Below, piece after piece: positions 6,195-42,758 of a stretch of 64,000 nucleotides of DNA. The notes below the pieces were generated by a model, which worked only from the letters and a program-made list of their open reading frames with translations, was not told the DNA's origin and searched no databases. The stretch lies in the IMG/VR virus record IMGVR_UViG_3300022856_000004. One strand, given 5' to 3'. The position numbers were made by a program, and so were the translations under genes. The stretch's first letter is position 1; each line of letters opens with the position of its first letter. The stretch comes from an uncultured virus (IMG/VR IMGVR_UViG_3300022856_000004) (taxonomy: Duplodnaviria > Heunggongvirae > Uroviricota > Caudoviricetes).

Positions 6195-6683
6195 TTAATA
6201 TTGTAATATCGCATAATCATATGATAAAACTACTGTACTTTTTACAGCACCACCAGTTTCCCAATCTAATGCACCTGGTTCATAGTTATTAATAAATGCA
6301 CCCTTTAATGTCCATTCTTCAATTTTATCACCAACTGGACCTAATAGGTTCAATGTCAAATCTTTTTTATAGAAATCAGCATAACCATCTCTACCAGTTA
6401 AAGACTCATGTGATAAACGAATCCATTCCATCATGGATTGTGCTGCTGATGGTACGATTGGATCGTATAACGTTAATGATATATCATTCCAATTACTTTT
6501 ACCCTTAACCTTTCTGTTAACATTGATGTGGTGTAATACAGTCACTTCATGTTCTATTTTAGGTCTTTCTGCCCCATGTATGATAAATGCAGGTACACCT
6601 TCAATGTACAACACAAATCTATTAATCTGTTTTGGTTCATATGAGGTGAAAAATATCTCATTCGGGTCTAATAGTTCTGGCAT
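6195..6683 (-). CDS. Tail tube protein (T4 gp19-like)
   Basis: 162 aa with WNDISLTLYDP, MMEWIR, EEWTLKGAF and LSYDYA motifs. It lies downstream of the sheath gene. Confidence 0.9.
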   Translation of the reverse strand: MPELLDPNEIFFTSYEPKQINRFVLYIEGVPAFIIHGAERPKIEHEVTVLHHINVNRKVKGKSNWNDISLTLYDPIVPSAAQSMMEWIRLSHESLTGRDGYADFYKKDLTLNLLGPVGDKIEEWTLKGAFINNYEPGALDWETGGAVKSTVVLSYDYAILQY

Positions 6684-7979: not shown

Positions 7980-10427
7980 TTATTGCTCGTTAAATGTAGC
8001 ACCGGTCGGAGTAATATTGAACGGAATTATAATCTGTTCAATTGATTGTGCTGGTTGTAGTATGATTTGACCTACTAATTGTTTTCTATCTATAACTTCT
8101 GGTGTATTAACTGTTTCATTAACTATTACTTGGAATGAATACAAACCTTGTCTTTGTTGTACAGCTTCTAAATACGCATTAACTATATTCAAGAATATCA
8201 ATCTTGTAGATGTAGTATTATTCTCAAACACCAACGATCTTACTTGTGACGTTATAAATGATTTTAAGTTTATTAATAATCTTCTAACATTCACTCTGTC
8301 TAATGAGCTTGGAATACCTTGTAATGTTTTCTGACCCCATATTGCAATTCCTTCTCTTGGGAATGTAGCAATTGGATTGACTCTTGCATCATACAAAGTA
8401 TCTCTTTCTTTTCTTGTTAATCTATTTCTAACATCAATAGCACTATTAACTTTACCTCTATTAAACCCAGCTGGTGCGAACCACGGATTTGATATTCTAT
8501 CATTATATGCTATTACACCACCAACTACAGTTGTAGGTGGAACCCATACTGGTTTATTAGTGTCTGTATCTAGGATTTTAACCCACGGATAATATGTAGC
8601 TGAATAATTACTGTCTATCGCTTGAATAGATGATATTGTAGTTGTTATATTTGAATCTAATCCAGATGGGTCTATTATATAGAATACATCTTGTCTTTCT
8701 TCACACATATTCTTAGCATACTCTATTATACCAGAGTGGTATTGATATACTAATCCAGGTGTTAATAACATATTAATATTATATACATCTGCATTGGATA
8801 ATATATCTATAGCTCTTTTATAAGAGATGTAACCAGCTGACGTTGTGTTTGTTAAATCAAGTCCTTGTGTATTAGCAGCTGACATATCACTACCAACTTT
8901 ACGTTGTTGATTTGGTTTCCATCCATCAAATCCACCTTGAAATGGAACTATGAATTTTCTACTTGATATAGCAGTATTTAAACTATTTAAATCTATACTA
9001 CCTGAGTATGGACTTGTTGAGTTTGGATAATTTGCACCTGCTTCTTGACTATAATTTGATAATAAGAAGTCTGTGTTTGATCCTGTAGTTTGACTACCAA
9101 TAACTGGTAATGGTTTTAAGTAATTTGCATTATCAGTATTTGAGAAATCATAATTAAATCCAAAATATTTATTTGCATTGTAAGATGCATTTATAGTCTG
9201 ACTTGTAACATATGAACACGCTACTGGTTGTGTAAATGAACTTGGTAATGGACTTACTAATGATTTAAATCCAAAAGGAACCAATGTAGGTGATATAGCT
9301 TTATTTTTAACTGTATTAGTTAATTCAACTCTAACATAGTTAGATTTTGTTGAGTAATCTCCAGATACAGTTATTTTTCCAGTTGAATCGGATGTTACAT
9401 ATTGATCACCAATAACTCTACCAATATAAGTAGCTGAGTCTGGATCCAAATCACAAGTGAATCTTTCAACCACATCATGTCTAATATCATCATCTGACGA
9501 TTTAAACGGTGAACCTTGTATTTTATCACTATTAACCTTTCTAACTACAACGTCAAATTGACCATAGTTAGAACCTGCTATAGTTCCAGCTGCTCTGATA
9601 TTATCAATTGCAACCTTAATTTCATAGTTTGAATTATCACCATGTGATAAAGTTTTAAACTTAAATAGGTTAGTAGTTGATGAACCAACTTGTTGTGATG
9701 TAATCCATGGAGTTTCAGCTTCTGAATATTCTGATGAGAAATCCCAATCTTCTGATGATCCAGTTTCAATTGTTATATTAACTTCACCTTCAGATGTTGT
9801 AGATATTCTACTAGCTTCATTAGCAAAGTTAGAATATATATATACTGGTTCTGTAGAGTTTGGACTTGATCCAAATAAACTACCAATCCAACTATTATTC
9901 GTAGAGAATAATGATGATGAATATGAAGTTCCATTCTTATCAGTTGCACCAGTAAATGCCGATGTGTCTGTTACGTATGAACCAGATACAGTTATTACAA
10001 ATGATCCAGTTGTTGTAGAACTAGTTACCATTGTACTAGCCTCAAATAAAGCATCAATACCATCACTTGTAACTACATATGTAGGGTGTAATGTTGTTAT
10101 AGAATATTCTCCTAATGAAGACGATGCTACTATATTTATAGGATTTGTAAGTGAATAACCACTTGTACCTAATAATCTAATAACAGTTAATGATGTTCCA
10201 TTTGATAAATATTCTTTAGCTGTATATGATGTATATTGCTTATCGTTCATAGGTCCAAACTTGTTACTATATTCGTTTCTAGTAGAAACTACCGTAGGAA
10301 CAAATGCCCTACCCTTAACAGTTGGGCCTATTAATGCTGCACCAATCTCACCTGCCACTGTAGATACAAAAGAACTATCTATCTCTTGTGTGTGTATCCC
10401 AGCTGATGAACCCATTGCTCGTGCCAT
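7980..10427 (-). CDS. Tail sheath protein (T4 gp18-like)
   Basis: YYPWV, PWFAPAGFNRG, VNPI, WGQKTLQ and RVNVRRLL motifs. Confidence 0.97.
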   Translation of the reverse strand: MARAMGSSAGIHTQEIDSSFVSTVAGEIGAALIGPTVKGRAFVPTVVSTRNEYSNKFGPMNDKQYTSYTAKEYLSNGTSLTVIRLLGTSGYSLTNPINIVASSSLGEYSITTLHPTYVVTSDGIDALFEASTMVTSSTTTGSFVITVSGSYVTDTSAFTGATDKNGTSYSSSLFSTNNSWIGSLFGSSPNSTEPVYIYSNFANEASRISTTSEGEVNITIETGSSEDWDFSSEYSEAETPWITSQQVGSSTTNLFKFKTLSHGDNSNYEIKVAIDNIRAAGTIAGSNYGQFDVVVRKVNSDKIQGSPFKSSDDDIRHDVVERFTCDLDPDSATYIGRVIGDQYVTSDSTGKITVSGDYSTKSNYVRVELTNTVKNKAISPTLVPFGFKSLVSPLPSSFTQPVACSYVTSQTINASYNANKYFGFNYDFSNTDNANYLKPLPVIGSQTTGSNTDFLLSNYSQEAGANYPNSTSPYSGSIDLNSLNTAISSRKFIVPFQGGFDGWKPNQQRKVGSDMSAANTQGLDLTNTTSAGYISYKRAIDILSNADVYNINMLLTPGLVYQYHSGIIEYAKNMCEERQDVFYIIDPSGLDSNITTTISSIQAIDSNYSATYYPWVKILDTDTNKPVWVPPTTVVGGVIAYNDRISNPWFAPAGFNRGKVNSAIDVRNRLTRKERDTLYDARVNPIATFPREGIAIWGQKTLQGIPSSLDRVNVRRLLINLKSFITSQVRSLVFENNTTSTRLIFLNIVNAYLEAVQQRQGLYSFQVIVNETVNTPEVIDRKQLVGQIILQPAQSIEQIIIPFNITPTGATFNEQ

Positions 10428-12130: not shown

Positions 12131-13276
12131 TTACCTTATGTAAATTTTCAATGGTATATTCAAGAATTGATTTCTAATCGCTTCTGATTCAGCAGTCATT
12201 TTTTCTAATTGATTACGTTTAGATAATTTCTCTAATGTATCCATTAACTCTTGTCTTAAACTTTCTTTCTCTTGTTGAGCTTGTATTAGTAAATCATTAT
12301 AATTTAATGATACAGTTGAATTTGGTATTGGTATAGTAGAGAATTTACCTCTTATCAACCCAAGCCCTTCTTTAGCTAATGCTATAGCATAATTCTTAAT
12401 CCATTGTCTACCTACAGAATTTATATCTGAGTATTGTATATTATCATAAGGAACATTACTATAATCACTAACTATACTATTAGACCCACTAGGTTCAGAA
12501 ACATCTAATCTTTCATCACGTAATATATATTGATATGTTAATTTATGTGTGTGTTCTGGAACTGGGAATATACGTAGGTTATTATTTATAAGTTCAAAGC
12601 TATACGATGATTTTCTAAATTGATCATTAAATTCAATCGCTTGCATTCTAACTAAATCTTCAAACATACTATAAGGTGTTAATGTATAAGTTACACCCTG
12701 TGCATATCCTGATAAACCCATTGCATTTAAGAAATCTCTATTACCTAAGTTAGGATCAAAATATCTTAAATTAGCTGGTATAGCATAATGAAATACACGT
12801 TTAATCTCTATACTACCAGATCCACCGTTCTGCTCATACAAGTCCTGTAAATCGTATAATTGCACACCTTCTTCTAACTGTACGAATCCCTCTCTCCAAT
12901 CTAAATTACCACCTGCACCAACTTCAGCTGAATAGTTCTTTGCTATTCCAATAACTCTATCTAAACTGTGTTTTATTACCTTTCCACTTAGAGATGCATC
13001 TCTATCTGAACCTTGAACACTTATAAAGTTATCAATTGTATTGTATTCATTTACAATAGCACTATATTCAGTTATAGATTCCTCTATAAATGAATACATT
13101 GATCCAGATGTCAATTCGACATCCATAATAGGATAACCAAGTCTATTAGCTATTAATGTAGCTATCTTAGGTGCGTCATTCTGAAATTGAATATCATTAT
13201 CATAATATCCAAAAGGAGTTGACCCTGATACTGGACCTGGACTTCCATCCCAAATAGGTATTGTTATTGTTGCCAT
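12131..13276 (-). CDS. Neck protein / head-tail adaptor (T4 gp13-like)
   Basis: RLGYPIMDVEL and WIKNYAIALAKEGLG..RGKF motifs. Confidence 0.85.
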   Translation of the reverse strand: MATITIPIWDGSPGPVSGSTPFGYYDNDIQFQNDAPKIATLIANRLGYPIMDVELTSGSMYSFIEESITEYSAIVNEYNTIDNFISVQGSDRDASLSGKVIKHSLDRVIGIAKNYSAEVGAGGNLDWREGFVQLEEGVQLYDLQDLYEQNGGSGSIEIKRVFHYAIPANLRYFDPNLGNRDFLNAMGLSGYAQGVTYTLTPYSMFEDLVRMQAIEFNDQFRKSSYSFELINNNLRIFPVPEHTHKLTYQYILRDERLDVSEPSGSNSIVSDYSNVPYDNIQYSDINSVGRQWIKNYAIALAKEGLGLIRGKFSTIPIPNSTVSLNYNDLLIQAQQEKESLRQELMDTLEKLSKRNQLEKMTAESEAIRNQFLNIPLKIYIR

Positions 13277-13300
13277 ATATTAATAAATATAAATGATTTG

Positions 13301-14026
13301 TTATTTTGTGTTCTGATATTTATCAAATCTAATCATAAATTCATCTAAGATTGGATGTCTATGGTTTGATTGCATTTCAAATGTAGTAAAACCATTTATA
13401 CCTTGACCACATTCAATTAAAAATTCTAAACCACTATCACGTCTATTCTTTAAATCAATTTGTCTATAATCACCACAGAATATCATTTTTGATCCTTTAC
13501 CAAGTCTTCCAATTATCATCATCACTTGGTCTATAGTTATATTCTGACACTCATCAATTATAAGACATGCATTTGAAAACGTAACACCTCGTAGATATGC
13601 TAATGGTGATATTACTATATCATCATTATCCATCATATTTTTTATAGTTTGTTTTTTTTGTGTGGAGCTACCATAACATTTTCTAAAGTTATCATATACT
13701 GGTTGTAACCAAGGTTCCATTTTTTCATTTATATTACCTGGTAGGAAACCAATCTCTTCCTTTGATACTGTTGGTCTAGTTATATGTATTCTATCTATCT
13801 CTTTATCAAAAAATGCTGATAACGCATAGTTAACAGCACTCAATGTTTTACCTGATCCAGGCTTACCGAATAACACGGTAATATCATTTTCGATTATAAG
13901 TCTTTTGACTTCTTTTTGTTCTTCATTTAACTGGATGTCAAATGTTGGTTTCGTTTTTGGTCTTGCTTTTGATTTATTATCAATCTTAATATCTAAAATT
14001 TCACCGTTAGTCTTCTTCTTAGCCAT
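13301..14026 (-). CDS. phoH: PhoH-family ATPase
   Basis: Walker A GKPGSGKT, plus ITRP, GFLPG, YLRGVTF, IIDECQN, GDYRQID and RHP motifs. Confidence 0.95.
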   Translation of the reverse strand: MAKKKTNGEILDIKIDNKSKARPKTKPTFDIQLNEEQKEVKRLIIENDITVLFGKPGSGKTLSAVNYALSAFFDKEIDRIHITRPTVSKEEIGFLPGNINEKMEPWLQPVYDNFRKCYGSSTQKKQTIKNMMDNDDIVISPLAYLRGVTFSNACLIIDECQNITIDQVMMIIGRLGKGSKMIFCGDYRQIDLKNRRDSGLEFLIECGQGINGFTTFEMQSNHRHPILDEFMIRFDKYQNTK

Positions 14027-14073: not shown

Positions 14074-15942
14074 TTAATATTTCAAAATATATTCGCTTTT
14101 ATGTTTAGATTTGTTATTAAAATGAGAAGTATTATTCTGTAAAAAATACTCATCACCATCAGGAAAATACTGCCTAAGATTAGAACTGAAATTTATCAAT
14201 TTGTTATTAAATTTGTTAATTCCATTTACGATGAATTGGTCTACCCATTCTTCCAAAGAAGAGTAATAAATATGATTAGAGTAAATTTCTTTATCATAGT
14301 ATGGTATAGAAGTAAACGTTAAATTAAAGTTGTAAGTATCACTATAATCTTCCAATTTAGAATTTAATATAGTTACATTATCAAAATTAGAAGATAATAA
14401 TTTTAATTCATTATAAGTTTCTATATTAGGTTCTAACCCAATATATGTTCCATTTGGATATATAGATTTGAATCCTAATAATCTACCACCAAACCCAGCA
14501 CAAGGGTCTAATACAACTGGAGCTGTATTATCACCTATAAAATGTTTATATATTCTAGCAGCTACAACTGGTTTGAAAAATGATATTGTATGTCTAAGTG
14601 ATGACATACCAACATTTATATTTCTAATTGAGAAATCATATACTTCGTCATTACTACCAAGACCAAGTCTATTTTTAATAATTTCAGTTACATGTTCATC
14701 AGAATTGTAAATTTCATATGGGGATTTTGAGTTGTTATAATGTGATTTCCAATATGATTTAAATATTGATTTTAAATATTCATTGCCTACAACTGATGTG
14801 TTGTTATTAAATGTTTTATCTTCTAATTTGAAGTTGATAGTTTTATCATATATAGACTTTGTTATTGATTGTATATTATAATCACCAAATGGATATGGGT
14901 AATCGTCTATAAATTCCCTTATGAATTTTCTATATAACCACATATTTTTATTTATGTAATCGGCTTTTAATTCTATATAATCTTTACGTATTATAATATC
15001 TTTATATGATACATTAATATGGTTATTAGTATTATAATTTAAAATATCATCAATACTATTTATATTATAAACGTCCTTCTCCATAATCCTAATTAAATTC
15101 GGTATATTTCTATTTTTACGATTATCATTTATAACTTCAGATAATTGTCTATGGTTTAAATCCTTTAATGTTGTTGGATGCCAATAAACACCATCAACCT
15201 CAATATACATATCATGATCATATAAGTAAAAATCTATTATACCAAATTCATGTTGTGCTTGTGGCTCAAATCTACATCCTGATTGTTCAAGTATAGATTT
15301 TATATGTAGTTCTATTTTTGTATCTTTATAGTCACTGGTCATTCCACGTTTTATAGCTGCTTCACGCATTTTAGATTTACTTTCTTCTGAAAATATATAA
15401 CCTGTTTTAACTGGTTGATGGTGATCCACATAATTTCGTCTAAATGGTTCGGATACAAGTAATGTCACCTCTTCTCCACAACCACATTCACAGAATTTTG
15501 GTTCGTCATCAAATATATATTTTCTAACATAATCTAATTTATCCATATTATGTTTTTTCTTAACATGATGTGATAACGTAACTTCATTATGAAATTCGTT
15601 ATTGCATATTTTACATGTTACTCCATTAGTTTCTTTTATTTTGATACGACGTAAGTATTTTTGTCTGAATTCTGGATGTGTCTTTACATACTCATCAATT
15701 GTTAATCCACCATGACCATCTCTTAAATGTGTAGCCATTCCTCTGGTTGAATATGTTTATTTGCATATTCCACACTCCACAACATTATTTTTTAACTCTC
15801 TATTTTGGAACTTTAATTTATTTGGTCTAAATTCACCATATAAATTAACATATTCATCTGACTTTATTTTATGTGCTTTGAATATATGAGCAGCCATTCC
15901 TTTATTGTCAACTTCGTTTTTGCATATGTTGCATATTATCAT
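14074..15942 (-). pseudogene. C2H2 Zn-finger + NUMOD3-like + DUF559/Vsr-like endonuclease + DNA amino-methyltransferase fusion, interrupted by one in-frame TAA at 15757-15759
   Basis: ORFs 15757..15942 and 14074..15738 are in the same frame. Motifs: CxxC..H..H fingers, CECGCG, DFYL..IEVDGVYWH, VLDPCAGFGGRLLG and FTSIPYY. Confidence 0.75.
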
Positions 15943-15975
15943 AATAATTATTCATGTTTGTTAATTAATAATATA

Positions 15976-16007
15976 CAAACTTACGAAAAAGAAATGATAT
16001 AACCTAA
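15976..16007 (-). promoter_or_regulatory. Bacteroidota-type sigmaA promoter (TTAG-N20-TAAGTTTG)
   Basis: Matches the -7 TAnnTTTG element. 23 bp are identical to the primase promoter. Confidence 0.75.
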
Positions 16008-16111: not shown

Positions 16112-17782
16112 TTATAAACCATAAATAGTTTCAAGTCCGTCAATTTTAATTCTACCATAGAACTCAGGTCTATAGATTTTTTTAGCATAGCGAGTCATTA
16201 AGGCTTTAGATGGCACATAATTCACAGGATCCCATATAATTGGCGTAGAGATTAACGGAATGTAAGGAGCATACACCGCACCAGTGTGCAAGAATGAATT
16301 ACCTTTATAACCCATTAAAATCTCATTGTTAGTATAGTAAGGAATCACATAAACATCAAACTCACCTCTAAAGTTACCAACTTTCTTAGTACCAGCTGAG
16401 AAGTTTTTAGTATAGTCTTTACTAGCGTCAGAACTGAATCCTGGCATAGATTGGAATATAGTTGCAATTTTAGGAGATGTAACTAAGAAGTTAGCACTAC
16501 CCAATTGAGTTTTTTGATAGATTTGGTTTGATACACCATTAACCGTGATCATTAACTCTTGGAACCATTGTGTTCTTGTATATGCAGCAGTTTCACCTTG
16601 AACAGTAGAGAAATCTGTCATTTCAGTACCATTGAATGTTCTACCCAATTTAGCACTCCAAGCAGCTGTATTAGTAGCACCATCTCTTAACATTTGTAAT
16701 ATTTCTAAATCCTGCTCTCTCGAAATATAATCGCCCATTACAGTTGTTAATTCTGCCTCTGCATCAATTGAATGATAAGCATTAACGTCTTGTTGGAATT
16801 CAGGAGTCCATGTTGTTTTTAACTTTCTAGTCTTAGCCACGATCTCTTCAGATCTGAATTCCATGTTTAATTCTGGAATATCTAAAGGTTCTTCTTGTGT
16901 TTTCGTATATTCAAAATCACCTCTCACTTCTGAGCTTGGTTGTTTGTGATATGTAATCACTAAGTCAGTTGACAATGCATCTGCTGAACCAGAAACCACA
17001 AATGTAATTTGTGTTTTAGCACCATTGATTGATGTGAATTGTGGGTAATATGAAGATACACCAGTACCAGCTACTTTGAATGCAGATACACCAGCTATAT
17101 CAGGAGTTGCTAATGAAGCAGCTGCTACAGTGATTGTATAGATTGAATTAGCTAAAGTTCCAAATGTATTACCTGTTGCCGTAACAGATTGTGACCATTC
17201 TGTATCGTAATTGTATGTTGCTGCTGATGCCATAGCACCAGAAACGAATGTTGATGCACCAATAGTTGTTCCAACTGATATTGCTGATGAAGTTACGTCA
17301 TTGATTGTATAACCAAATTTACCGTCACCATATAAACCACCTCTTGCTTCACCTTCTTCTTTAGTAACACCCCAAACGGAATCTTCTTGTGAGTCTTTAC
17401 CAGAGTTATTTTCGAAACCTGGTTGAGCAGTACCATATTTAAACTCTAGATAGAATACTAGTCCAGAAGGCATATTCATTGGTTGAACAGATACAAATTC
17501 CTTTGCTACTGTATTACCGAATACTCTTCTTACTAATGGTAATGCGATACCATTCCATTCTTCTGAGTTAGCAGCAGTACCTAATCTTGATGATTCATGT
17601 ACTAATCTTTTTGCTTGGTTTTCAAGCATTAATGCCATATTCCTTTTTTCGTAATCAGAAGATAAATCTTCTAATAGGTGGGTAGGTTCCCACTTTCTAA
17701 TTAAATCTGCTGACTGTCTGATTAAGTTAGCTTCTGTGTTAGAAGTCTCAGTCAATAGATGTTGTAAGCCATTATTAGCCAC
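16112..17782 (-). CDS. Major capsid protein (T4 gp23-like)
   Basis: LPLVRRVF, VSVQPMNMPSGLVFYL, AKTRKLK, YAPYIPL and MTRYAK motifs. GTG start with GAGGA SD. Confidence 0.97.
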   Translation of the reverse strand: MANNGLQHLLTETSNTEANLIRQSADLIRKWEPTHLLEDLSSDYEKRNMALMLENQAKRLVHESSRLGTAANSEEWNGIALPLVRRVFGNTVAKEFVSVQPMNMPSGLVFYLEFKYGTAQPGFENNSGKDSQEDSVWGVTKEEGEARGGLYGDGKFGYTINDVTSSAISVGTTIGASTFVSGAMASAATYNYDTEWSQSVTATGNTFGTLANSIYTITVAAASLATPDIAGVSAFKVAGTGVSSYYPQFTSINGAKTQITFVVSGSADALSTDLVITYHKQPSSEVRGDFEYTKTQEEPLDIPELNMEFRSEEIVAKTRKLKTTWTPEFQQDVNAYHSIDAEAELTTVMGDYISREQDLEILQMLRDGATNTAAWSAKLGRTFNGTEMTDFSTVQGETAAYTRTQWFQELMITVNGVSNQIYQKTQLGSANFLVTSPKIATIFQSMPGFSSDASKDYTKNFSAGTKKVGNFRGEFDVYVIPYYTNNEILMGYKGNSFLHTGAVYAPYIPLISTPIIWDPVNYVPSKALMTRYAKKIYRPEFYGRIKIDGLETIYGL

Positions 17783-17809: not shown

Positions 17810-18934
17810 TTAATCGCCTAAACTGTAATTTAGTATTGATTTGAATTTAGCAAATTGGTCACCTTTACCTTCTGTAATGTTTTTCTTTACAGTTTGATTA
17901 CCAATGTGTTTAGCACTTTCTTTAATTTGTATTTTACTCTTAGGAGCTACATTATTAATGTCAAATGCTTCTGTGAATGATTCGAAGTATATTTTAATAT
18001 CGTTTTCTGATTTAGCAGAATCGAACTTTTCAATTATTCTCTGTCTTGTCTGTGCGTTAATAGGATACTTATCGAAGATAGTATTCAGATATTGTAATTT
18101 AGTTAAGTCTCTCTTCTGTTCAGTTAATGTTTTATTGTAAATACCAATAGCTTGTTTTAACTGTTCGTTCTCATTACTTAACGTTTTATTTTTGTTTTCT
18201 AAAGTGATAACCTTACCTTGTAACTGATCAAATGCATATTTAGATACACTATTAGTTTCTGATAAATTATTATTTACTTCTTCATCTTCTACTATTTCTA
18301 AAGAATCTTCTTCTTCACTAACAGTATCTTCTTCATTCATTTTCTTTTGTTCTGCGTCTGGAGAACTTTTCTTAACCGTACCCATTTCTGAGTTTGGTTC
18401 GTTTTGTTTTGGTGCATCCATATCTTGTGTAGGTGATGCATTTTCTTCTACTTCTTCTTGTTCTTGGTTAATACCAGGTTCGATTTCGTCAGCTGGATCT
18501 AATCCACGTTCTAAATCAGGATCCATTTCTGGTTCTAGTTTTATTCCTAACAATTCTTTCAAAGCATCGATTATATCTTGCTTATCAATTCCCATTTCTG
18601 GTTCTACCTCTGGTTCCATTGTAACTGATTGATCAGTTGCATCAGGTTCCAATGTTGGTACCATATCTTCTTCTACATTGGTTTCATCCAATTTTTCTGA
18701 ATCTGGATCTTCATCCGAAACGTAAAGTTCACTCACCTCCTTTTCGTATGCTTCTTCGTCTTCCTCTTCGGAATCCATTTCAGATAATTTTTCTGAAACC
18801 ACAGCGTTGTTTCTAGGAACAAACTTTTCAGTTAGTGCTCTCTGAACATGTTGCGTGAATAACTCCTTAGAGTCTTCAGCCATATTCATAGCCTCTTCCA
18901 ACATTACGTGTGTATTTGATGTTTCTTTTGACAT
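17810..18934 (-). CDS. Prohead scaffolding protein (T4 gp22-like)
   Basis: Very acidic with a coiled coil, located immediately upstream of the major capsid gene. Confidence 0.75.
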   Translation of the reverse strand: MSKETSNTHVMLEEAMNMAEDSKELFTQHVQRALTEKFVPRNNAVVSEKLSEMDSEEEDEEAYEKEVSELYVSDEDPDSEKLDETNVEEDMVPTLEPDATDQSVTMEPEVEPEMGIDKQDIIDALKELLGIKLEPEMDPDLERGLDPADEIEPGINQEQEEVEENASPTQDMDAPKQNEPNSEMGTVKKSSPDAEQKKMNEEDTVSEEEDSLEIVEDEEVNNNLSETNSVSKYAFDQLQGKVITLENKNKTLSNENEQLKQAIGIYNKTLTEQKRDLTKLQYLNTIFDKYPINAQTRQRIIEKFDSAKSENDIKIYFESFTEAFDINNVAPKSKIQIKESAKHIGNQTVKKNITEGKGDQFAKFKSILNYSLGD

Positions 18935-19494: not shown

Positions 19495-19914
19495 TTACTT
19501 TATTTTGCCAAAATTAACTTTTACTATATTATCATTAATTGGATTTTTAATATAGACCATATATTTAGAACTATCACCTAACATTATTTCATTAAGATTA
19601 ATACGATTACCATTGTATTCTCCCTCTTGTAACGTATTGTTCATAGTACCAATATATATATCCATTAATATACTATCTATAATACCTTGTATATTCTGTA
19701 TATCTCTATCAGAATCCTTAGTTGGTTTTAATTTTGAATTTGTCTTATCAGAAAATAATTCTAGTTCTTTCTCTGAAAGAGAATCTGATATATCTATTAT
19801 TGTTTGTTCTACATCTTTAGTTTCACCACGCTTATACGCTAATGCCTGTTTTAGTGTATCACGTTGTTTATCTGCTTTGGATGTCATATACCACATCTCT
19901 GGTTGTATTGACAA
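19495..19914 (-). CDS. Hypothetical head-module protein (true start may be the ATG at 19887)
   Basis: Collinear ORF with ATGA overlap with the protease stop. Confidence 0.65.
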   Translation of the reverse strand: MSIQPEMWYMTSKADKQRDTLKQALAYKRGETKDVEQTIIDISDSLSEKELELFSDKTNSKLKPTKDSDRDIQNIQGIIDSILMDIYIGTMNNTLQEGEYNGNRINLNEIMLGDSSKYMVYIKNPINDNIVKVNFGKIK

Positions 19915-20507
19915 AATATACCGTAGAATATATCATCTACATTTCTTTTTGTATTCTCTACGATAATCTCGGATGCTTCTGATATTGTGTTCTCTCTAAC
20001 TGGATTCATAAAACTACCATGATTAGATGGATTAGTTACAAAATCCCAACCTATCAACTCATAATCATCACATATCTCTGACGCTTCGTTGTTTATTTGT
20101 TTTGTTGAACCAACACCTCTACTTGATATTCCAAACTTATAACCACGTTTGATTATATTAGCTACGATTCTACCGGCTGGATTATCATCTAATATTTCTA
20201 AACGACCCATCACATTATTACCTTCCCACCATATACGTGTTATTACATGCGATGCATTCTTACCTTCAACTACTGTTGACTCTGGATGATCTAACTCACC
20301 ATAAGCACGTTTCTCATTGACAAATTCTTTTATGTATTCTTCTATAATACGTTCAAATATTTTTTTGGGATATACACGTCCATTCTTATTGACTTTATCA
20401 ACTGTAGTTAGTATTCCCTCAACGAACATACGTTTAAGTCCGTTCGTAGATTCATACATAACATTTACAGGTTCAAATATATTATATTCTAATATTGTGT
20501 TTTTCAC
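19884..20507 (-). CDS. Prohead core protease (T4 gp21-like)
   Basis: NKNGRVYP, GELDHP, GISSRGVGS and DFVTNPS motifs. Confidence 0.95.
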   Translation of the reverse strand: MKNTILEYNIFEPVNVMYESTNGLKRMFVEGILTTVDKVNKNGRVYPKKIFERIIEEYIKEFVNEKRAYGELDHPESTVVEGKNASHVITRIWWEGNNVMGRLEILDDNPAGRIVANIIKRGYKFGISSRGVGSTKQINNEASEICDDYELIGWDFVTNPSNHGSFMNPVRENTISEASEIIVENTKRNVDDIFYGIFCQYNQRCGI

Positions 20508-20697
20508 GTTCCAGTTCCGTTTTCCGTTTTATAAACTTCTGTTTTTGCTTTATACTATTCTTCTTTTCAGAAGGGGAAATATGATGTTTAGTTCTATTAA
20601 CTTCGTCTATGAAGTTATGATTTTTTTGTTTCTTCTTGAAACGTTTAAGCATTGAATCAACACTCTCAGTTCCTCTATTGGTAACACCAAAAGACAT
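20482..20697 (-). CDS. rpsU: Phage-encoded ribosomal protein bS21
   Basis: 71-aa basic protein, ESVDSMLKRFKKK...IDEV...HHISPSEKK, matching the bS21 pattern E..D..LKRFK(R/K)...PS. Confidence 0.8.
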   Translation of the reverse strand: MSFGVTNRGTESVDSMLKRFKKKQKNHNFIDEVNRTKHHISPSEKKNSIKQKQKFIKRKTELEREKHNIRI

Positions 20698-20700
20698 ATA

Positions 20701-21162
20701 TCACCTTTCTGTTTCGTTGTATATTGAATCTATCAAACTAATAACTGTATTAGTTTTCTCTCTTAATTTAATTAGCTTATCTTTAGATGATTTCAATAGT
20801 GATGTATCATCCATACCAGTTTCATGTTTTAACTTTGACGTATGCTTTAATTTCTTCTCTAATCCACACATCCAAGAATATAGCAATTTTATAGTTTTGT
20901 TCATTCTGTCTTTATCAGACTTATATGCATCATCAGACTTGTACTCTTTATACGATGCTTCCTTTATTTCATTTTCGCATTTACAAGATTTACCTTTGCA
21001 CTTGCAACTTGATTTATTTCCGAATGCATTTGGTGTTAAGTACCCTGGTGTTGCATCACTTGTATTTCCTGCGTCACACCCACCTGCCCCATCACCATCT
21101 TCATCTAATTCATCATCAGTATCAGGTTCTATTATTTTTTTGTGTATCTTACTAAAATCCAT
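20701..21162 (-). CDS. Hypothetical head-module protein
   Basis: 153 aa with an acidic N-terminus, a PGYLTPNAF motif and a Cys cluster CKCKGKSCKC. Confidence 0.7.
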   Translation of the reverse strand: MDFSKIHKKIIEPDTDDELDEDGDGAGGCDAGNTSDATPGYLTPNAFGNKSSCKCKGKSCKCENEIKEASYKEYKSDDAYKSDKDRMNKTIKLLYSWMCGLEKKLKHTSKLKHETGMDDTSLLKSSKDKLIKLREKTNTVISLIDSIYNETER

Positions 21163-21485
21163 TATCTAACTACTCCATTTCTAATAAATACATATTGTTT
21201 TGCGGATGCATTATTAACGACTTTAGATATACTAAATTCATATAATTCATTAACAGCCAATGCAGTTCCAGGTATAGACCCACCATCTGTAAAGTGTATT
21301 GTACAAGCTGTATTAGTTAGTATAATTGCCCCTGCACCATAATCTGATCCTGTAAATGAACTTGTACTTGTGTTCTGGACTTCTATTACTCTGTTCCATC
21401 TACCTGGATGTCCTTGCATAGCAAATGAATCTAAGTTTATAGTAGGATTTAAACTGTTCTTCTGTTGTGGATTCGGTGTCGCCAT
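21162..21485 (-). CDS. Hypothetical protein, likely virion
   Basis: 107-aa beta-rich ORF with stop/start overlap. Confidence 0.65.
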   Translation of the reverse strand: MATPNPQQKNSLNPTINLDSFAMQGHPGRWNRVIEVQNTSTSSFTGSDYGAGAIILTNTACTIHFTDGGSIPGTALAVNELYEFSISKVVNNASAKQYVFIRNGVVR

Positions 21486-21487
21486 TA

Positions 21488-22315
21488 TTATACCTTTAAT
21501 ACATTAACTAATTCATAAATATATAACATTGTAGCTATATGATTCTTTTGTAATTTTTCTAAACTTGATAACTCGGTAAGTATATCCAATACTTCATCTA
21601 ACTTCACGGATAATACGTTTGAGCTTTGAGTTGTCTTTATTTTATTTATCTCTTCTTGTAATAACGGAATTTTTGATTTTATAAACTCAACCGTCATTTT
21701 TGAATTGGATGAATTTGTTATATATTCAACCAATATTGATTTTTGTTCTTCTGATAAATGTGAGAAACGCTCATTAAATTTCTCTATATATTTATCTAAT
21801 ATCTTAACTCTCTGATCAAATGGCCTATTTAAAAATGAATCCATTTGAATAGTTTGACTTTGTTTTGTCGCTGTTAAGTGATCTAATACAAAATACATAT
21901 GATTTGTAGAATCTTCTTCTGAATACCCACTTTCCATTATAGTATTTATAGATGCTAGTAATTTGTAATTAGGAACTTTAGTTTTAAATAAATCCTTAAT
22001 ATCAGACGTATCTTTTAATTCTTTAACTAAATTATATTTTTCTCTATCTAATTTGTTTTTGTCCAAACCATTAAATCGTTCTATAATATTATCAATTAAT
22101 ATTTGTGCTTTGGTTTCTGATTTTGATGTTGTATTAACTAAAGTTCTATATAAATCATATTCCTTAGCTAATTCTGAATTGCCAGAAAAATACTTCTGTA
22201 ATATAGGTGATACAGTTGATTCTCTTTGATGTAGAATATCATCTGTTATTTTTCTAGTTATAAATTCAAACATCAAACCAGTGTTTCTATATTTAGAATG
22301 CTTATTTTTGCTCAT
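21488..22315 (-). CDS. Conserved-looking hypothetical protein next to the portal gene
   Basis: 275 aa beginning KHSKYRNTGLMFE. Confidence 0.75.
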   Translation of the reverse strand: MSKNKHSKYRNTGLMFEFITRKITDDILHQRESTVSPILQKYFSGNSELAKEYDLYRTLVNTTSKSETKAQILIDNIIERFNGLDKNKLDREKYNLVKELKDTSDIKDLFKTKVPNYKLLASINTIMESGYSEEDSTNHMYFVLDHLTATKQSQTIQMDSFLNRPFDQRVKILDKYIEKFNERFSHLSEEQKSILVEYITNSSNSKMTVEFIKSKIPLLQEEINKIKTTQSSNVLSVKLDEVLDILTELSSLEKLQKNHIATMLYIYELVNVLKV

Positions 22316-22360
22316 TTAACGACTCGTTGGTTTCTTCTTAATTATAAATATAAATAAAAT

Positions 22361-24013
22361 TTAATTTTCTGTATTGGTTTTGTTTTTGATATACGACGTG
22401 TTAGCTAGTTTAGGCTTTTTCATTAACTCTTTATTGCCAAGTGTATCATACGCAAAATTGTTATCATGTGATCCATATTTGTCTCCTTCGGGTGGTCTCC
22501 CAACTGGACTTGATTGTGCTTCACCACCAGTCATAGCAACACCAGTTGATACAGGATCATTACCTTCCATCTCAATTTGTTTATATCTAAACTGTTGTTT
22601 CTTATCTTCTATCATTTGATTACGTGATATTTCTATCTCTTCATCATTCATATTAAATATATGTTTATATATATATTCTGATGGAATCATGTCCAACTCT
22701 CTCATGTGTTTAGATACATTAACTTTTGATTGCATAAGAGTTAACATCTCTTGTTGGTATATAAGTGATGGATTGTTTAATTTTATATCAAACTCTATCA
22801 ACTCATTTAATTCAAATCCCTGTGCAAATAGATGTGTATATGCTATTTCTACTAATGTAGCTTCAATTTGACGTTGTATTCTTTCTATAGTTCTTGCAAA
22901 TCTAACATCTTGTGCTGCTAAACTTGACCTACCAGAACTTTCATCTTCAAATCCCAAATATGATTTTGGAACCATTAGCCCAGCGAATAGTCTATTTTTT
23001 AAATAATCTATTTCATCAATCATATTATTATTATCTAAACCATCTAATGTTTCTATACCAGAACCATCATCTTTACCACGTCTAGGAATAAAATAATCTT
23101 CGTTTAAATTTTGTATGTTATAACGTAAATTATATTCTCCAGTATTTTGATCATAGATTGGAGTTTGTTTCATCTCAGCAGTGATACGTTCTATATAAGC
23201 ATCTACAGCTGATGGTTCTATCCCAGCAACATCTATATTAAATACTCTTTTGTGTGGAGCACGTGTTATTCTATGAATCATCATTGCATCTTCCATCAAT
23301 GATATTTGTTTCCAATGTTTTCTAACACCCTCTATTATAGACTTACCATAAGGTAGAAAGTTAGAATCTGATGTTAATCTAAAATGTGCTAATTCCCACT
23401 TCTCATATCTTTCTTTATTGAAATAATCACCGTATTCACCATAATCATCCTTAATCTTAAAGAATGTTGTTATTCTACCATAATCATCTGCATGCTCAAC
23501 TCTCTCAACAATATAAGGTGATACTGACATTGCATTAACAACACCATAATCTTGCCTAACATCTAATAAAACTGGATAATCACCGTACTTACATGTTTCT
23601 CTAACCCAATTCCATAGGTTCATCTCTATATTCAACACATCATAAAATAAGTTGTCTAATATAGCCTTTAAATCTGCATTATCAGTTTTAACTACTAACA
23701 TATCACCACGTTCATTGACTAGTGTAGCTTCATCAGCATACACCTTTAACGCAGCAGATATGATAGAATCTTTATCCATCATCTCGTAATCTTTGAATAA
23801 ATCCATACGTTCTTGATTGAAATTATATGAATTATTTTCATAATCCACCAAACTTCTACGCATAACTAATCTTTTGTATCTATCAGATGTATAGGGTGAA
23901 CCTGCACTCTGTATTACATTAGGATCAATTATTTTTAATTTATTCTTATCAATTCTCTGTACTATTACGTTTCCAGAGAATAGTTTATTTAACCTATCTT
24001 TTAAACTTGCCAT
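22361..24013 (-). CDS. Portal protein (T4 gp20-like)
   Basis: LMEDAMMIHRITRAP..RVFNIDV, EDYFIP and IETL.G motifs. Confidence 0.96.
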   Translation of the reverse strand: MASLKDRLNKLFSGNVIVQRIDKNKLKIIDPNVIQSAGSPYTSDRYKRLVMRRSLVDYENNSYNFNQERMDLFKDYEMMDKDSIISAALKVYADEATLVNERGDMLVVKTDNADLKAILDNLFYDVLNIEMNLWNWVRETCKYGDYPVLLDVRQDYGVVNAMSVSPYIVERVEHADDYGRITTFFKIKDDYGEYGDYFNKERYEKWELAHFRLTSDSNFLPYGKSIIEGVRKHWKQISLMEDAMMIHRITRAPHKRVFNIDVAGIEPSAVDAYIERITAEMKQTPIYDQNTGEYNLRYNIQNLNEDYFIPRRGKDDGSGIETLDGLDNNNMIDEIDYLKNRLFAGLMVPKSYLGFEDESSGRSSLAAQDVRFARTIERIQRQIEATLVEIAYTHLFAQGFELNELIEFDIKLNNPSLIYQQEMLTLMQSKVNVSKHMRELDMIPSEYIYKHIFNMNDEEIEISRNQMIEDKKQQFRYKQIEMEGNDPVSTGVAMTGGEAQSSPVGRPPEGDKYGSHDNNFAYDTLGNKELMKKPKLANTSYIKNKTNTEN

Positions 24014-24038
24014 TGTATATAAATATAATTGAATTTTT

Positions 24039-25631
24039 CTATAATAGTGATCTTAAATCAAATGAATCCCCATTACCAACTTTCATTTGCCAAGGATCTT
24101 CATTTTTAAATTGATGTTCGTTTTTAACTCGTTTGATGTTTCGTAGCATAGACATCTTAATATTACTACCTGCACCTCTAACTCTAACTGCAAAATCTCT
24201 AGTATATAGTCCTATTGCCATAGCAATAACTAAGTCATCATTATACCCTTTTGCTGCTTGTGTTTTTCTACCATCCCATATAAACGAATACATTTCATTT
24301 ATAAGTCTAAGTGAATTTATTTTTGGTCGTGATGTATATACACCATTATGATCCATTTCTCTAAAATATAATGCTAATTTATCAATTATTAATTCACGTG
24401 TTACGTGTGACATAGTAAATCCAGGTGTCATACCATCTTTATTATATCTATAATCGTATTTATAAGCATTAGAGCTATCATCAAGAACATTAATAGCTGA
24501 TTTTGAATAATATATATTGTCATAACCAATATCAATAACATCCTGTATTACAGCCCAACCAATACTATTATTCTCAACTACCAACATAGCATTATTATAT
24601 TCTCTAGCTATAGATACAACTCTATTAGCGAATAACTTAGTATCAACCTGACCTTTGTATTCAGCCACTTGTTTTAATTCATTAACTTCTAATACTTGTA
24701 CAGTTGAATAATCCGAACCGTTTCCACGTGCAACATCGACAGCAACTACATAATCATGTTTGTTTGATGCCTCTTCCCATATCCAAAAATCATTGTTATA
24801 ACGAGTTTCGATTGGATCATTACATAATTTTTTGTATTCTTCTAATATCCTATGCTCTATCAATGAGTTACCTGACGAAGCGAAATCGCAATCATATTCC
24901 TGTGCGGCCTGTTTTTCACCTAACTCTATAGTTTGTCTATCTCTGAATGCTTGGTCTTGATCTGGATGTAAGTACCAAGGTAATTTTATAAAATTAAATC
25001 CATTAACACCTGCTTCTGCATTAGCCCACATATTATGAAAGAAATTTGCAGTTCCGTTTGGAGTTGATAAAAGTATAGTCGAACCACCTCGTGATAGGGT
25101 TGCTTGTGCTGATGTCCAAATCTCCGAAATATCATTAATAAACGCAATTTCATCAATTATTAATAGACTTAGAGCCTCTGACCTACCTGCATTCGGAGAT
25201 GAACCAACTGCCTTTATTCTAGATCCATTCTTTAATACTAATGAAGTTTTATTATCTTCTTTTCTCGGTACCATAGACCTAAGAAATGTAGGTAGATTTT
25301 CATACATCAACTTAACTTTTCTAATTAAGTTTATAGCTGTCTTCTCATCAATTGCAATTACAAGTATATTCCTATTCTGCTCAAATATCATCATATGAAC
25401 ACATCGCATAGCAGTTAGAGTAGATATTCCCATCTGTCTAGCTTTAAGTATTATGTTTCTATCATGTTCCATAATAGATAATAATGCTTTCTCTTGAAAT
25501 TCATACAGTTCAAATGGAACAACACCTTTCATCGGATGTTCTACTTTACAATACTTTTTAGCAAAATAAACTATATCTTGCTTACACTTTAGTAATTCTG
25601 GTTTTAAACTTTCTAATATTTTCTTATTCAT
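24039..25631 (-). CDS. terL: Terminase large subunit
   Basis: KARQMGIST Walker A, LIIDE Walker B, LSTPNG, VDVARG and DDLV motifs. Confidence 0.97.
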   Translation of the reverse strand: MNKKILESLKPELLKCKQDIVYFAKKYCKVEHPMKGVVPFELYEFQEKALLSIMEHDRNIILKARQMGISTLTAMRCVHMMIFEQNRNILVIAIDEKTAINLIRKVKLMYENLPTFLRSMVPRKEDNKTSLVLKNGSRIKAVGSSPNAGRSEALSLLIIDEIAFINDISEIWTSAQATLSRGGSTILLSTPNGTANFFHNMWANAEAGVNGFNFIKLPWYLHPDQDQAFRDRQTIELGEKQAAQEYDCDFASSGNSLIEHRILEEYKKLCNDPIETRYNNDFWIWEEASNKHDYVVAVDVARGNGSDYSTVQVLEVNELKQVAEYKGQVDTKLFANRVVSIAREYNNAMLVVENNSIGWAVIQDVIDIGYDNIYYSKSAINVLDDSSNAYKYDYRYNKDGMTPGFTMSHVTRELIIDKLALYFREMDHNGVYTSRPKINSLRLINEMYSFIWDGRKTQAAKGYNDDLVIAMAIGLYTRDFAVRVRGAGSNIKMSMLRNIKRVKNEHQFKNEDPWQMKVGNGDSFDLRSLL

Positions 25632-26927: not shown

Positions 26928-27449
26928 TTAATTTTTAAATTCTTTGATTACATATGATATTATACCAGCTATAGCAGTTAACCCAAATACTATCATTTGC
27001 CAATTAGTTCTAGCCCATTTAAATACATCAATACTATCAGTAACTGTACTTATAGACAATATTGGTGGGTTTAAATTTATCAGTTCGGTTACTTGTGCTA
27101 AATAACATATAAATTCACCATCTGAACTTCTAACTGGTGATACATTCAATAAAACCCAAACTATAACTCCAGTCTTAGTTATATAACGTTTCTTCATTCT
27201 ATAAGATGGAACTTCACCATCATATATACGCTTGGTCATCTCAACATCAGAATCTACATCATCTGGGTGAGTTATTGATTGGAATGTTTTTAATTGTATT
27301 TCTGCTAGATTATATTCAATTACATTCAAATATATATCATTTGCATGTAGAATTAAACCATCTTTGGATACTAATAATATCCCAACTATAGAGTTGTTCC
27401 ATATACTATCAAATATATTCTCTTTCATAGATGAATCTATAACAAACAA
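26928..27449 (-). CDS. PAS/PAC-domain protein with C-terminal transmembrane helix
   Basis: GILLVSKDGLILHAN, ITHPDD, KRYITKTG.IVWV and VRSSDGE are PAS S-box/PAC hallmarks. TM segment MIVFGLTAIAGIISYVI. Confidence 0.9.
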   Translation of the reverse strand: MFVIDSSMKENIFDSIWNNSIVGILLVSKDGLILHANDIYLNVIEYNLAEIQLKTFQSITHPDDVDSDVEMTKRIYDGEVPSYRMKKRYITKTGVIVWVLLNVSPVRSSDGEFICYLAQVTELINLNPPILSISTVTDSIDVFKWARTNWQMIVFGLTAIAGIISYVIKEFKN

Positions 27450-38693: not shown

Positions 38694-38710
38694 ATATAAT
38701 AAATATAAAT

Positions 38711-41700: not shown

Positions 41701-41794
41701 TATATAATTTATCAAATATAACATTATATTCGTTATGTCTATTGTGAAGTCGAATATGTATATCCGATATATGAATTAGCTTATCGATTACCAT
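38711..41794 (-). CDS. Fused Mre11/SbcD nuclease - Rad50/SbcC ATPase (gp47-gp46-like)
   Basis: Phosphoesterase motifs SDIH, GD, GNHD, YHG and GDIH are followed by GENQTGKS, LSQ, a CSHC hook, ASG.E, IDEGFGALD and ISH. Confidence 0.92.
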   Translation of the reverse strand: MVIDKLIHISDIHIRLHNRHNEYNVIFDKLYNFISNQTGNNVTVLTGDILHSKLDISSELISITYDFLYKLSRLQPLVVIPGNHDLNEKNMGRDNPLSVIINAINDSTDTHIHYLFGNENLVIDNINFCHIPFYDKTHIDYIDDSKINVGLYHGDISGCVYDTGEPSRSNVKIDIFSKYDCVLLGDIHKRQILDNNIAYAGSLIQQNFSESCGDHGGLIWDLVGMQIVPFDITNDYGFYTVDVNNIVLDGIKPNYKVRIPHTTSNIANAIEVRDTLSMMGVDIGSVELINSDNSKLIVSDRIQSNNMLDVDYQCNVIREMLSNKDNITDSDIDSIVDLHIDNYKMDNVDTSVRNISISKLWFDNMFSYGKDNYIYFSSYTPGILGIIGENQTGKSSILDIITFAIFDTTRRTTKSADVMNISSDEMFVKIEIVINDELFYIERYGSRSKNGTVSVKVDFYTLQDKLNGDKRSSTNKIIQSYIGNIDDFLMTTFLSQDNGFKFSKLTQSEKKDLLIKYLNIDIFEDIKSSVDDEVKRFSNLLNVHKNIDINFEINNSKLNIEAHTSELEVQKNNIHNINHNIDELVNYISIQKSNITDITTVDMSVSDIDSLIETNNDLLGSIDIDGCNESIELYNNKIKSIKLDMGELLETYNNSIEFIKSNSNLKLDIQSNKQIVISKKQLIKSYTSEIDKFSDYDYDPECSHCVNNNKLYFDNIETKRTLITKLESEIEVLENKLLVGEGLLVEYDLHMTIIDNYNEKKSEVELYKDKLISSTDKLSKLKLEVDKITSKLNELQQDKNTIINNKDIIDNNNIIMSRIENTNIKIKSYKDERDEIDNIISKLNLDIYKENDNIDRLTNIQIEISDLSKKHHIYKSYSELLSRNGIQLYILNTMIDIINIETNNIIHGMVDFNIKMVLNGSNIDHYIEHNGTYRDSRLASGMESFIIDIATRVALYRISSYISIDFLMIDEGFGALDVNNLSKIPDVFDMLREYYSNIVVISHIDSIKDYMDNYLHIINDGVSRITF

Positions 41795-42722
41795 ATAATA
41801 CCTTTAATTTTATTAAATCAGATTTTTTGATTAATTTTGAATTTTGAACTCTAACTTTCATTTCTTCATATCCATGTTCAGATGGGTCTTTATCCCCTAA
41901 CTCACAAAAATACACATTTATACCTATTGATATTAACATATTTATATAACCAAGTGTACTTCTCATAGCATCTGGGTCTAAGCACATAACTATATCTTTT
42001 ATGTCATTATCATATATATAAGACATAGTGACATCAGATATTACTTTACCTAATAATGGTGTTGAATTTTGCTTAATAGCTATAGAATCAAACATACCCT
42101 CACATAAAACTATAGGGTGTGTTGGTGATAATAAATGCTCAAATATTATAGATGTTGGTTCAGAATCTGGTTTTTTGTGAGTTATAGACTTAGTATCTAA
42201 TATAGATCTACAATAATAATAATTTAATTTGTAGTCTGAGTTGTATGATGGTATAATAACCATATTATCATATACACCCACATCCGAGTAGCCTATATTA
42301 TATCTTATAATGTCTAAATCCGTAATCTTTCGATTGTCAATTAGATACTTATATAATTTATTCTCTTTATGGGAATTTATCCCATTAGTCAATGACTTAT
42401 AGCCAAATGGTAATTTTACATTTATATTATTCTTTGGTTGTGATTTGAATGTTATTCTGTGATTTGATACTATAGATTTTAACTCTTCAAAATACCTATA
42501 GTCTACATTTGATTTAGCAAATAAAGTGAATATATTATATCCACCATACTCAGATACCCAACAATTCCATTTATAGTTTCCGTCACTATCTGGTTGTAGT
42601 TTGATGCATAGTTTTGGTTTGGTGTGATTTACAAACGGAGAATAAAAGTAATAATTACCATTACTTACCGATTGATGCTTACCATATACTTTTTCTAAAA
42701 GATTTAAAAGTTGTAAATTCAT
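41781..42722 (-). CDS. DNA primase (DnaG-like TOPRIM)
   Basis: Degenerate Zn-ribbon SPF..H...CW, plus CEGMFD, CLDPDA and KDPSE motifs. Confidence 0.88.
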   Translation of the reverse strand: MNLQLLNLLEKVYGKHQSVSNGNYYFYSPFVNHTKPKLCIKLQPDSDGNYKWNCWVSEYGGYNIFTLFAKSNVDYRYFEELKSIVSNHRITFKSQPKNNINVKLPFGYKSLTNGINSHKENKLYKYLIDNRKITDLDIIRYNIGYSDVGVYDNMVIIPSYNSDYKLNYYYCRSILDTKSITHKKPDSEPTSIIFEHLLSPTHPIVLCEGMFDSIAIKQNSTPLLGKVISDVTMSYIYDNDIKDIVMCLDPDAMRSTLGYINMLISIGINVYFCELGDKDPSEHGYEEMKVRVQNSKLIKKSDLIKLKVLYGNR

Positions 42723-42726
42723 AATA

Positions 42727-42758
42727 CAAACTTACGAAAAAGAAATCATATATACAAA
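42727..42758 (-). promoter_or_regulatory. Bacteroidota-type sigmaA promoter (TTTG-N20-TAAGTTTG) for primase/SbcCD, likely giving a leaderless mRNA
   Basis: Full match to the -33 TTTG / -7 TAnnTTTG consensus. The ATG is only 4 nt downstream. Confidence 0.85.

Follow-up and report, generated by a model that had tools for sequence, protein, structure and literature searches.

A bS21 gene in the head module of an uncultured tailed phage and its association with SD-led translation starts

bS21 is the most common ribosomal protein of phages, and why phages carry it is the question addressed here. The mechanism by which an altered bS21 could expose the anti-SD is provided by Flavobacterium johnsoniae, as described in the accessible sections of PMC7797042, PMC9976891 and PMC13000457. 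In this bacterium, Tyr54 of bS21 stacks on A1534 and Ile55 contacts the tail (PMC7797042), loss of bS21 or the Y54A change raises SD-led translation, and the SDs associated with the rpsU circuit are very strong, below -13 kcal/mol (PMC9976891). Among phages, Chen et al. (2022; PMC9723584) described freshwater Bacteroidetes myophages of clades a-e that carry bS21 beside the terminase, portal, protease and capsid genes. In the available portions of that paper, they proposed late substitution of the phage bS21 into host ribosomes, cited the entry of HTVC008M bS21 into 30S in E. coli, stressed that Tyr54 is kept, argued that the phage protein mimics ASD blocking by the host, and raised counter-defence as one bS21 role and packaging in the head as an option; the SD use of phage genes is not measured in those portions, and its supplements may hold RBS data. 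In the parts available, McNutt et al. speculate on phage-mediated bS21 exchange, and Al-Shayeb et al. linked the absence of SD to phage rpS1, not to S21; the word "phage" is absent from PMC13000457 and PMC13000453. Our literature search, outside which subscription papers lay, found no published test of bS21 against SD use in phage genes. The placement of phage bS21 beside head genes is already published, and the link to SD is without a precedent that we found.

The DNA analysed here (the window) is a stretch of 64,000 nucleotides corresponding to positions 62,001-126,000 of a phage contig of 134,590 bases (134.6 kb; 28% GC), on which no terminal repeat was found. We found that the 71-aa product of the ORF at 20482..20697 (minus strand) is a bS21 (rpsU) homologue, scoring above the cut-offs of both PF01165 (31.1 bits, cut-off 27) and TIGR00030 (32.1 bits, cut-off 28.95), matching phrog_21469 in PHROGs and aligning with host bS21. 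An earlier note, made from the sequence alone, had placed a bS21-like gene between the portal and protease genes, and this was borne out. Specifically, the prohead protease gene (Peptidase_S77; 19884..20507, minus strand) lies directly downstream and overlaps the end of bS21 by 26 nt, and three head-module ORFs without a Pfam family (153, 107 and 275 aa; 20701..22315, minus strand) fill the interval to the T4-like portal gene (22361..24013, minus strand). The portal ATG lies 5 nt past a ATATTTAT motif and its mRNA is likely leaderless; neither this gene nor that of the terminase large subunit (24039..25631, minus strand) has an SD. The bS21 gene, encoded in the same direction as the head genes, has its own SD-like site, AAAGGTGAT (20700..20708, minus strand; -9.5 kcal/mol, rank 10 of 134 starts). 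Also on the minus strand are the genes for a scaffold-like protein (17810..18934; SD GAGGT), whose role is suggested by its position, the major capsid protein gp23 (16112..17782; GTG start, SD GAGGA), PhoH (13301..14026; SD GAGGT), the tail sheath (7980..10427; SD GAGGA) and the tail tube gp19 (6195..6683; SD GAGGA). Between the capsid and phoH genes sit a 554-aa Vsr-domain protein and a 61-aa zinc-finger ORF (14074-15985) with their own host-type promoter, and this insertion is likely a mobile endonuclease.

According to the accessible text of PMC9723584, the clade a-e phages share with the present one the neighbours of bS21, an aromatic residue at the Tyr54 position (Phe here), PhoH and sugar-modifying enzymes, but their bS21 gene is on the opposite strand and their complete genomes measure 293-331 kb, whereas here bS21 shares a strand with the head genes and its end overlaps the protease gene. 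Among the loci of the present family, the opposite-strand layout was seen in G030 only. The F. johnsoniae system of rpsU autoregulation and ASD sequestration, as far as its described parts go, involves the same protein family and the contact positions Tyr54 and Ile55, but its circuit works through bS21-lacking ribosomes and one 13-bp SD, whereas in this phage the SDs are numerous and short and the bS21 site measures -9.5 kcal/mol. By capsid identity, the nearest cultured phages were Mel-JY01 (52%), Flavobacterium phage immuto (44%) and Rhodothermus phage RM378 (36%). Mel-JY01, a "Microcystis" phage (PP395634.1) on which our literature search found no paper, likewise carries a same-strand rpsU within its head module, TTTG..TAnnTTTG promoters and genome-wide SD use (90/210); it differs in that its bS21 gene is downstream of the protease gene, its bS21 is without the aromatic residue and its stated host is a cyanobacterium. 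Its Bacteroidota-type promoters and its grouping within the family (L319-L322) suggest that it may in fact infect a Bacteroidota accompanying the culture. Immuto (vB_FspM_immuto_2-6A, Immutovirus, NC_055915.1) resembles the present phage in its T4-like gene set and ATATTTAT motifs, but bS21 was absent in the 150 of 160 kb read, SD preceded only 9/173 starts, the capsid gene has an A-rich start and the host belongs to an SD-poor class.

The closest candidates for an intergenic promoter ahead of bS21 are two overlapping ATATTTAT motifs resembling late promoters (22344..22357, minus strand); the next such motif is at 24026, and no host-type promoter was found between 20697 and 26500. Half of the ATATTTAT copies (18/36) are in non-coding DNA, which makes up 8% of the bases, with 15 in the late arm and 1 in the replication arm. 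This concentration in the non-coding DNA of the structural arm points to late transcription, and bS21 is likely made late, from the ATATTTAT motifs; its proposed place among the late genes is supported by the positions of these predicted promoters. Bacteroidota-type promoters, which the earlier note had also recognized, number 17 on the whole contig, and the strict pattern TTTG-N19-21-TAA[GA]TTTGT occurs in 12 copies on the coding strand of the contig, one of them in the window, as compared with 0.025 in shuffles. The copy in the window, a predicted host promoter with TTTG at -33 and TAAGTTTG at -7 (42725..42758, minus strand), lies 4 nt before the ATG of a 313-aa primase-like gene. An ORF follows 16 of the 17 host-type promoters; two of these ORFs are leaderless, and 4 of the remaining 14 are SD-led. 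Starts located 4-6 nt past a promoter motif were observed for the portal gene (22361-24026), a 381-aa neck-region gene (12131-13290) and the 845-aa and 1586-aa genes (36156-38706 and 1840-1852), all behind ATATTTAT, and for the primase-like gene (41781-42758) behind TAAGTTTG, suggesting that leaderless mRNAs exist beside SD-led ones.

The SD-like sites that had been noted at nine starts were all present (9/9), 3-7 nt upstream of the cited starts. For a wider count, the starts of 134 minus-strand ORFs of at least 70 aa were picked blind to SD, as the first ATG in the first 16 codons or, failing that, the first start codon. In the pre-set test, which compared arm with arm and accepted a motif anywhere at -18..-4, SD preceded 32/51 ORFs of the late arm and 33/64 of the replication/metabolism arm (P=0.26), the other 19 ORFs falling in two further bins; the background at internal ATGs was 91/718, and shuffles of the late arm gave a mean of 5.5 SD-led starts of 51 (maximum 14) against the 32 observed. 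Beyond the window, in the arm with the replication and sugar-enzyme genes, which the earlier note did not cover, SD is almost as frequent (33/64). The motifs are mostly 4-5 nt long, and their aligned spacing peaks at 3-6 nt. Class-based and spacing-aware tests, chosen after the pre-set one, gave P=0.056, 0.027, 0.19 and 0.034. By function, with several class labels assigned without a profile match, partly by position, 22/35 virion and 7/20 replication genes were SD-led (P=0.056); under a spacing rule adopted post hoc, the counts were 20/35 for virion genes and 5/20 for core replication genes (P=0.027), 37/75 for other genes and 63/718 for the background. Grouped by nearest upstream promoter, 52/97 genes in late units and 12/37 in host units were SD-led (P=0.034). 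Replication genes themselves exceeded the background (5/20 versus 63/718, P=0.03), and genes first behind host promoters were SD-led in 4/14 cases versus the same background. SD precedes about half of all genes of this phage, early ones included, and we conclude that its SD use is real, genome-wide and graded toward virion genes, a gradient and no switch. An exclusively late use of SD was rejected on the arm test and on the replication and host-unit counts, both above background. Of the proposal that SD favours late genes, the enrichment of virion over replication genes was retained, but early genes are also SD-led, as in the replication arm.

The starts without SD are informative as well. Their G fraction at -13..-6 is 0.19, as compared with 0.21 in Ignavibacteria hosts, 0.08 in immuto, 0.07 in G022 and 0.11 in G019 (a 252-kb family genome with the same promoter form), and they are without the A-rich, G-poor signature of Bacteroidia phages. 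SD was found at 62/130 classed phage starts versus 0/81 in tiles of Bacteroidia hosts. Sugar enzymes were SD-led in 8/13 cases here versus 0/8 in G019, and the bS21 start, which is SD-led here, is SD-less in both G019 and a second family genome, G006. An extended SD of the rpsU type on the phage bS21 gene was rejected at -9.5 kcal/mol (rank 10/134) against the threshold of -13, and none of 64 bS21 starts in the family reached -13 kcal/mol, the duplex energies being our own calculation by a method other than that of PMC9976891. A duplex scan of non-coding DNA found no orphan extended-SD RNA; the matches at or below -13 kcal/mol lay in the tRNA clusters, at one gene start or at a hairpin on the non-coding strand.

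Scans of viral and genome contigs yielded about 230 loci of the family. With an iterated profile, bS21 was identified in 69 viral loci, always (69/69) on the head-gene strand, and PF01165 matched 25/46 whole contigs, including two SD-rich ones (L065 and L102) that had first been scored bS21-less and carry bS21 elsewhere. Among 152 distinct capsid genes of 180 found, SD preceded 48/54 with bS21, 2/63 without bS21 in the head module (mostly meaning none in the fetched locus) and 9/35 that were scored neither way. Similarly, in 21 pooled bS21-bearing genomes, this phage included, SD preceded 167/355 virion and 25/121 replication genes, as compared with 5/97 and 1/46 in six genomes without detected bS21. 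In G019, SD was found on 11/23 virion, 1/14 replication and 16/171 other genes (17/185 non-virion), and in G006 on 8/14, 0/4 and 5/63, respectively (5/67 non-virion); in both, bS21 is without an aromatic residue at the Tyr54 position. With SD confined to virion genes, these two genomes fit the unmasking model of the earlier note better than the present phage does. There are also bS21-bearing, SD-poor loci, namely L079 (1/19), L094 (1/10), L110 (3/12), L119 (3/19) and G030 (0/19). On the capsid tree, bS21 and SD look ancestral, with 8 and 7 changes and few separate losses, and independent contrasts are therefore few: 133 rows gave 4.0 in the same direction, 0.5 opposite and 2.5 without difference (median p 0.25), and 51 hand-picked rows gave 5, 0 and 1, respectively (p 0.0625). 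Thus, the suggested tie between bS21 and SD-led virion mRNAs stands as a family-wide association, but corrected for descent it is not significant (p 0.06-0.25). The capsid leaders of the sisters L065 and L068 are near-identical, and one A/G difference makes or breaks AGGA; in L065 (part of G019) bS21 is about 100 kb from the capsid gene, and the L068 contig is too short for a bS21 call. The 269-kb G030 (L219-L232) has two different head modules, one with the opposite-strand bS21, and is possibly a chimeric assembly.

The earlier note had further proposed that a divergent phage bS21 frees the anti-SD. Alignment of the C-terminal region with host bS21 did not support this, the masking positions Tyr54-Ile55 being kept as Phe-Ile, a conservative change. 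Host bS21 genes came from two classes, those to which an Ignavibacteriaceae MAG and a Parvicella MAG belong; the residue at the Tyr54 position is aromatic in 28/29 parsed Bacteroidia bS21 and in 0/30 of Ignavibacteria. The C-terminal helix of the phage protein is basic, with 8 K/R in 20 residues (mean 6.1 in the 29 Bacteroidia and 8.7 in the 30 Ignavibacteria proteins), and of these two classes, the Ignavibacteria profile scored it higher (25.1 bits) than the Bacteroidia profile (15.9 bits). Across the family, 169/392 head genes were SD-led in 32 loci retaining the aromatic residue and 285/499 in 34 other loci, so that loss of Tyr54 does not predict SD use; as a mechanism, it was rejected for this bS21. 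A search for host homologues of the phage bS21 gave two matches, both self-like, and five in a library of 1.84 billion; a PDB search gave weak matches (best E 0.022).

A host in Bacteroidota is supported by the promoters, a T9SS domain and the nearest cultured relatives. The domain is in a 518-aa phage protein with a signal-peptide-like start behind a late motif (L037:5949-7505, minus strand); its match to PF18962, the T9SS C-terminal domain, scored 25.2 bits, below the cut-off of 27, and no host could be assigned from its 3-4 homologues. For the class of the host, the -7 element TAnnTTTG was found upstream of rplM in 10/20 Ignavibacteria and 13/20 Bacteroidia; at -33, TTTG[CGT] was present in 15/17 phage promoters, 6/13 Bacteroidia rplM and 0/10 Ignavibacteria rplM promoters, and TTGAC in 0/17, 0/13 and 6/10, respectively. 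As a sequence feature, the -33 element favours a Bacteroidia-class host. Starts in Ignavibacteria were SD-led in 50/160 cases versus 0/81 in the Bacteroidia tiles, and the supplement rows of PMC10783764 that were available put SD use in Ignavibacteria at 28-36% (for background on SD use and promoters, see the accessible parts of PMC3155529 and bioRxiv 10.1101/172254). Since SD-reading Ignavibacteria also use TAnnTTTG, the promoters leave an SD-blind host unproven, and of the host type first suggested, the phylum was supported but the SD-blind class was not. Strong TTTG-type enrichment, picked by eye, was seen in 18 of 151 Bacteroidota genomes, with clear SD use in 1/18, and SD was used in 4/6 borderline genomes. 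Promoter tests with an over-specific pattern or random 20-kb tiles did not discriminate, nor did TANNTTTGYA counts, which reached 1.4x control or more in 15/31 Ignavibacteria and 10/31 Bacteroidia. Of 40 contigs in MAG bins, 18 were in Bacteroidota-labelled bins, two of these Ignavibacteria; one bin holds three different phages, which makes host evidence from bins weak. Family contigs with SD-led genes were in Ignavibacteria-labelled, noisy bins in three cases (L331, L335 and L372). Of two bS21 family contigs in Ignavibacteria-labelled MAGs, L372 (G048:C64) and L373 (G047:C203), one is SD-led and one SD-less. A sister link between the present phage and L335 appeared in one tree but was lost with IQ-TREE, the tree position being unstable, and was rejected.

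The reading that we tentatively prefer is that this is a genuine phage bS21, likely made late, which likely loads into host 30S subunits for SD-led initiation, the host itself being likely to read SD already. The protein would be produced from the head-gene operon through the ATATTTAT motifs and, by analogy with HTVC008M bS21, would enter host 30S subunits; ribosomes loaded with it would favour SD-led initiation during bulk synthesis of virion proteins, and the benefit may be a supply of SD-compatible bS21 while the most abundant of these proteins are made. The host would be an SD-reading Bacteroidota, for example of an Ignavibacteria lineage, in which case this phage would need no unmasking switch specific to the late phase. 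With SD before about half of the genes, early ones included, support of SD-led translation is the likely role of bS21, rather than such a switch. In favour of an SD-reading host we count the SD use of non-virion genes above background (replication arm, core replication genes, host units, genes first behind host promoters and sugar enzymes), the G retained in SD-less starts, the SD of bS21 itself, its higher Ignavibacteria profile score and basic helix, the pairing of TAnnTTTG with SD in Ignavibacteria, and the three Ignavibacteria-labelled bins; against it we count the Bacteroidia-like -33 element, the single SD-using genome among the 18 TTTG-enriched ones, the difference between late and host units, the Bacteroidia-like Phe-Ile, the noise of the bins and the unrecovered L335 link. 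It is also possible, and we give this some weight, that the phage bS21 replaces the copy of an SD-blind Bacteroidia host and loosens the bS21/bS18/bS6 pocket in a graded manner, allowing short SDs to work, with SD having spread past virion genes through still-active host-sigma promoters or head-packaged bS21. The Bacteroidia-like -33 element (15/17) and the contrast between phage starts and Bacteroidia tiles would suit such unmasking, as would the capsid counts, the SD-poor immuto without detected bS21, the virion-confined SD of G019 and G006 with their non-aromatic bS21 and, in G019, the same promoter form, the belated finding of bS21 in L065 and L102, and the effect of bS21 loss or Y54A in F. 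johnsoniae. Against it are the retained Phe-Ile, the SD-led head genes of loci that keep the aromatic residue, SD on genes first behind host promoters, the five bS21-bearing SD-poor loci and the non-significant contrasts; moreover, the F. johnsoniae circuit, in the described parts, is linked to SDs below -13 kcal/mol, whereas those of the phage are mostly 4-5 nt. Of the unmasking switch that had been envisaged, a graded family pattern remained, but a late-only switch in this phage did not.

A more extreme form, which we regard as rather doubtful, is that the ribosomes of an SD-blind Bacteroidia host are converted by phage bS21, possibly head-packaged and delivered at infection, so fully that half of the genome, early genes included, has adopted SD; if true, this phage would be the far end of a gradient leading from immuto (bS21-less and SD-free) through G019 and G006 (virion-only SD) to genome-wide SD. 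Less probable still is a bS21 role independent of SD, such as filling bS21 vacancies that arise once the host is shut off, or counteracting a defence that stalls translation (counter-defence is among the roles put forward by Chen et al. in the available text of PMC9723584), with SD tracking the host lineage and both traits lost together on moves to SD-blind hosts. The ancestral state of both traits with few losses means that shared descent can produce the correlation, and bS21-bearing SD-poor phages do exist; however, independent pairs were concordant 4-5 times and opposite 0-0.5 times, and the confinement of SD to virion genes within single genomes, G019 and G006, is not easily explained by host lineage alone. 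To return to the preferred reading, if the host simply reads SD, the gene is an ordinary new bS21, together with a warning against taking TAnnTTTG promoters by themselves as a sign of an SD-blind host; if unmasking is true, it would amount to a virus-made specialized ribosome and would offer a tool for orthogonal expression in Bacteroidota. The tie between bS21 and SD-led capsid genes makes the function testable in F. johnsoniae, and natural contrasts are offered by immuto (no bS21 found, no SD), G019 and G006 (virion-only SD), and the present phage and Mel-JY01 (genome-wide SD). The value of this phage is that it is the genome-wide end of the family SD gradient.

Several other features were observed. 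A stand-alone PAS-domain protein is encoded in the late region (26928-27449, minus strand), and the duplex scan revealed repeated segments inside a 1573-aa gene (33806 and 34982) and internal repeats about 116-117 nt apart in the 1586-aa gene (about 74-306). Elsewhere in the analysed loci, ten tRNA genes are present (L035:765-4617), and a ribonucleotide reductase is split by an intein with an HNH domain (L037:10011-14060, minus strand). A large sugar-nucleotide/glycosyltransferase cluster (L035:11317-20000 and L036:1946-14201) is mostly SD-led here and SD-less in G019. In addition, L036:5981-8081 and L035:10327-10746 (both minus strand) encode a tandem family of small paralogues that have nearly the same N-terminus, contain internal repeats and match no Pfam family.
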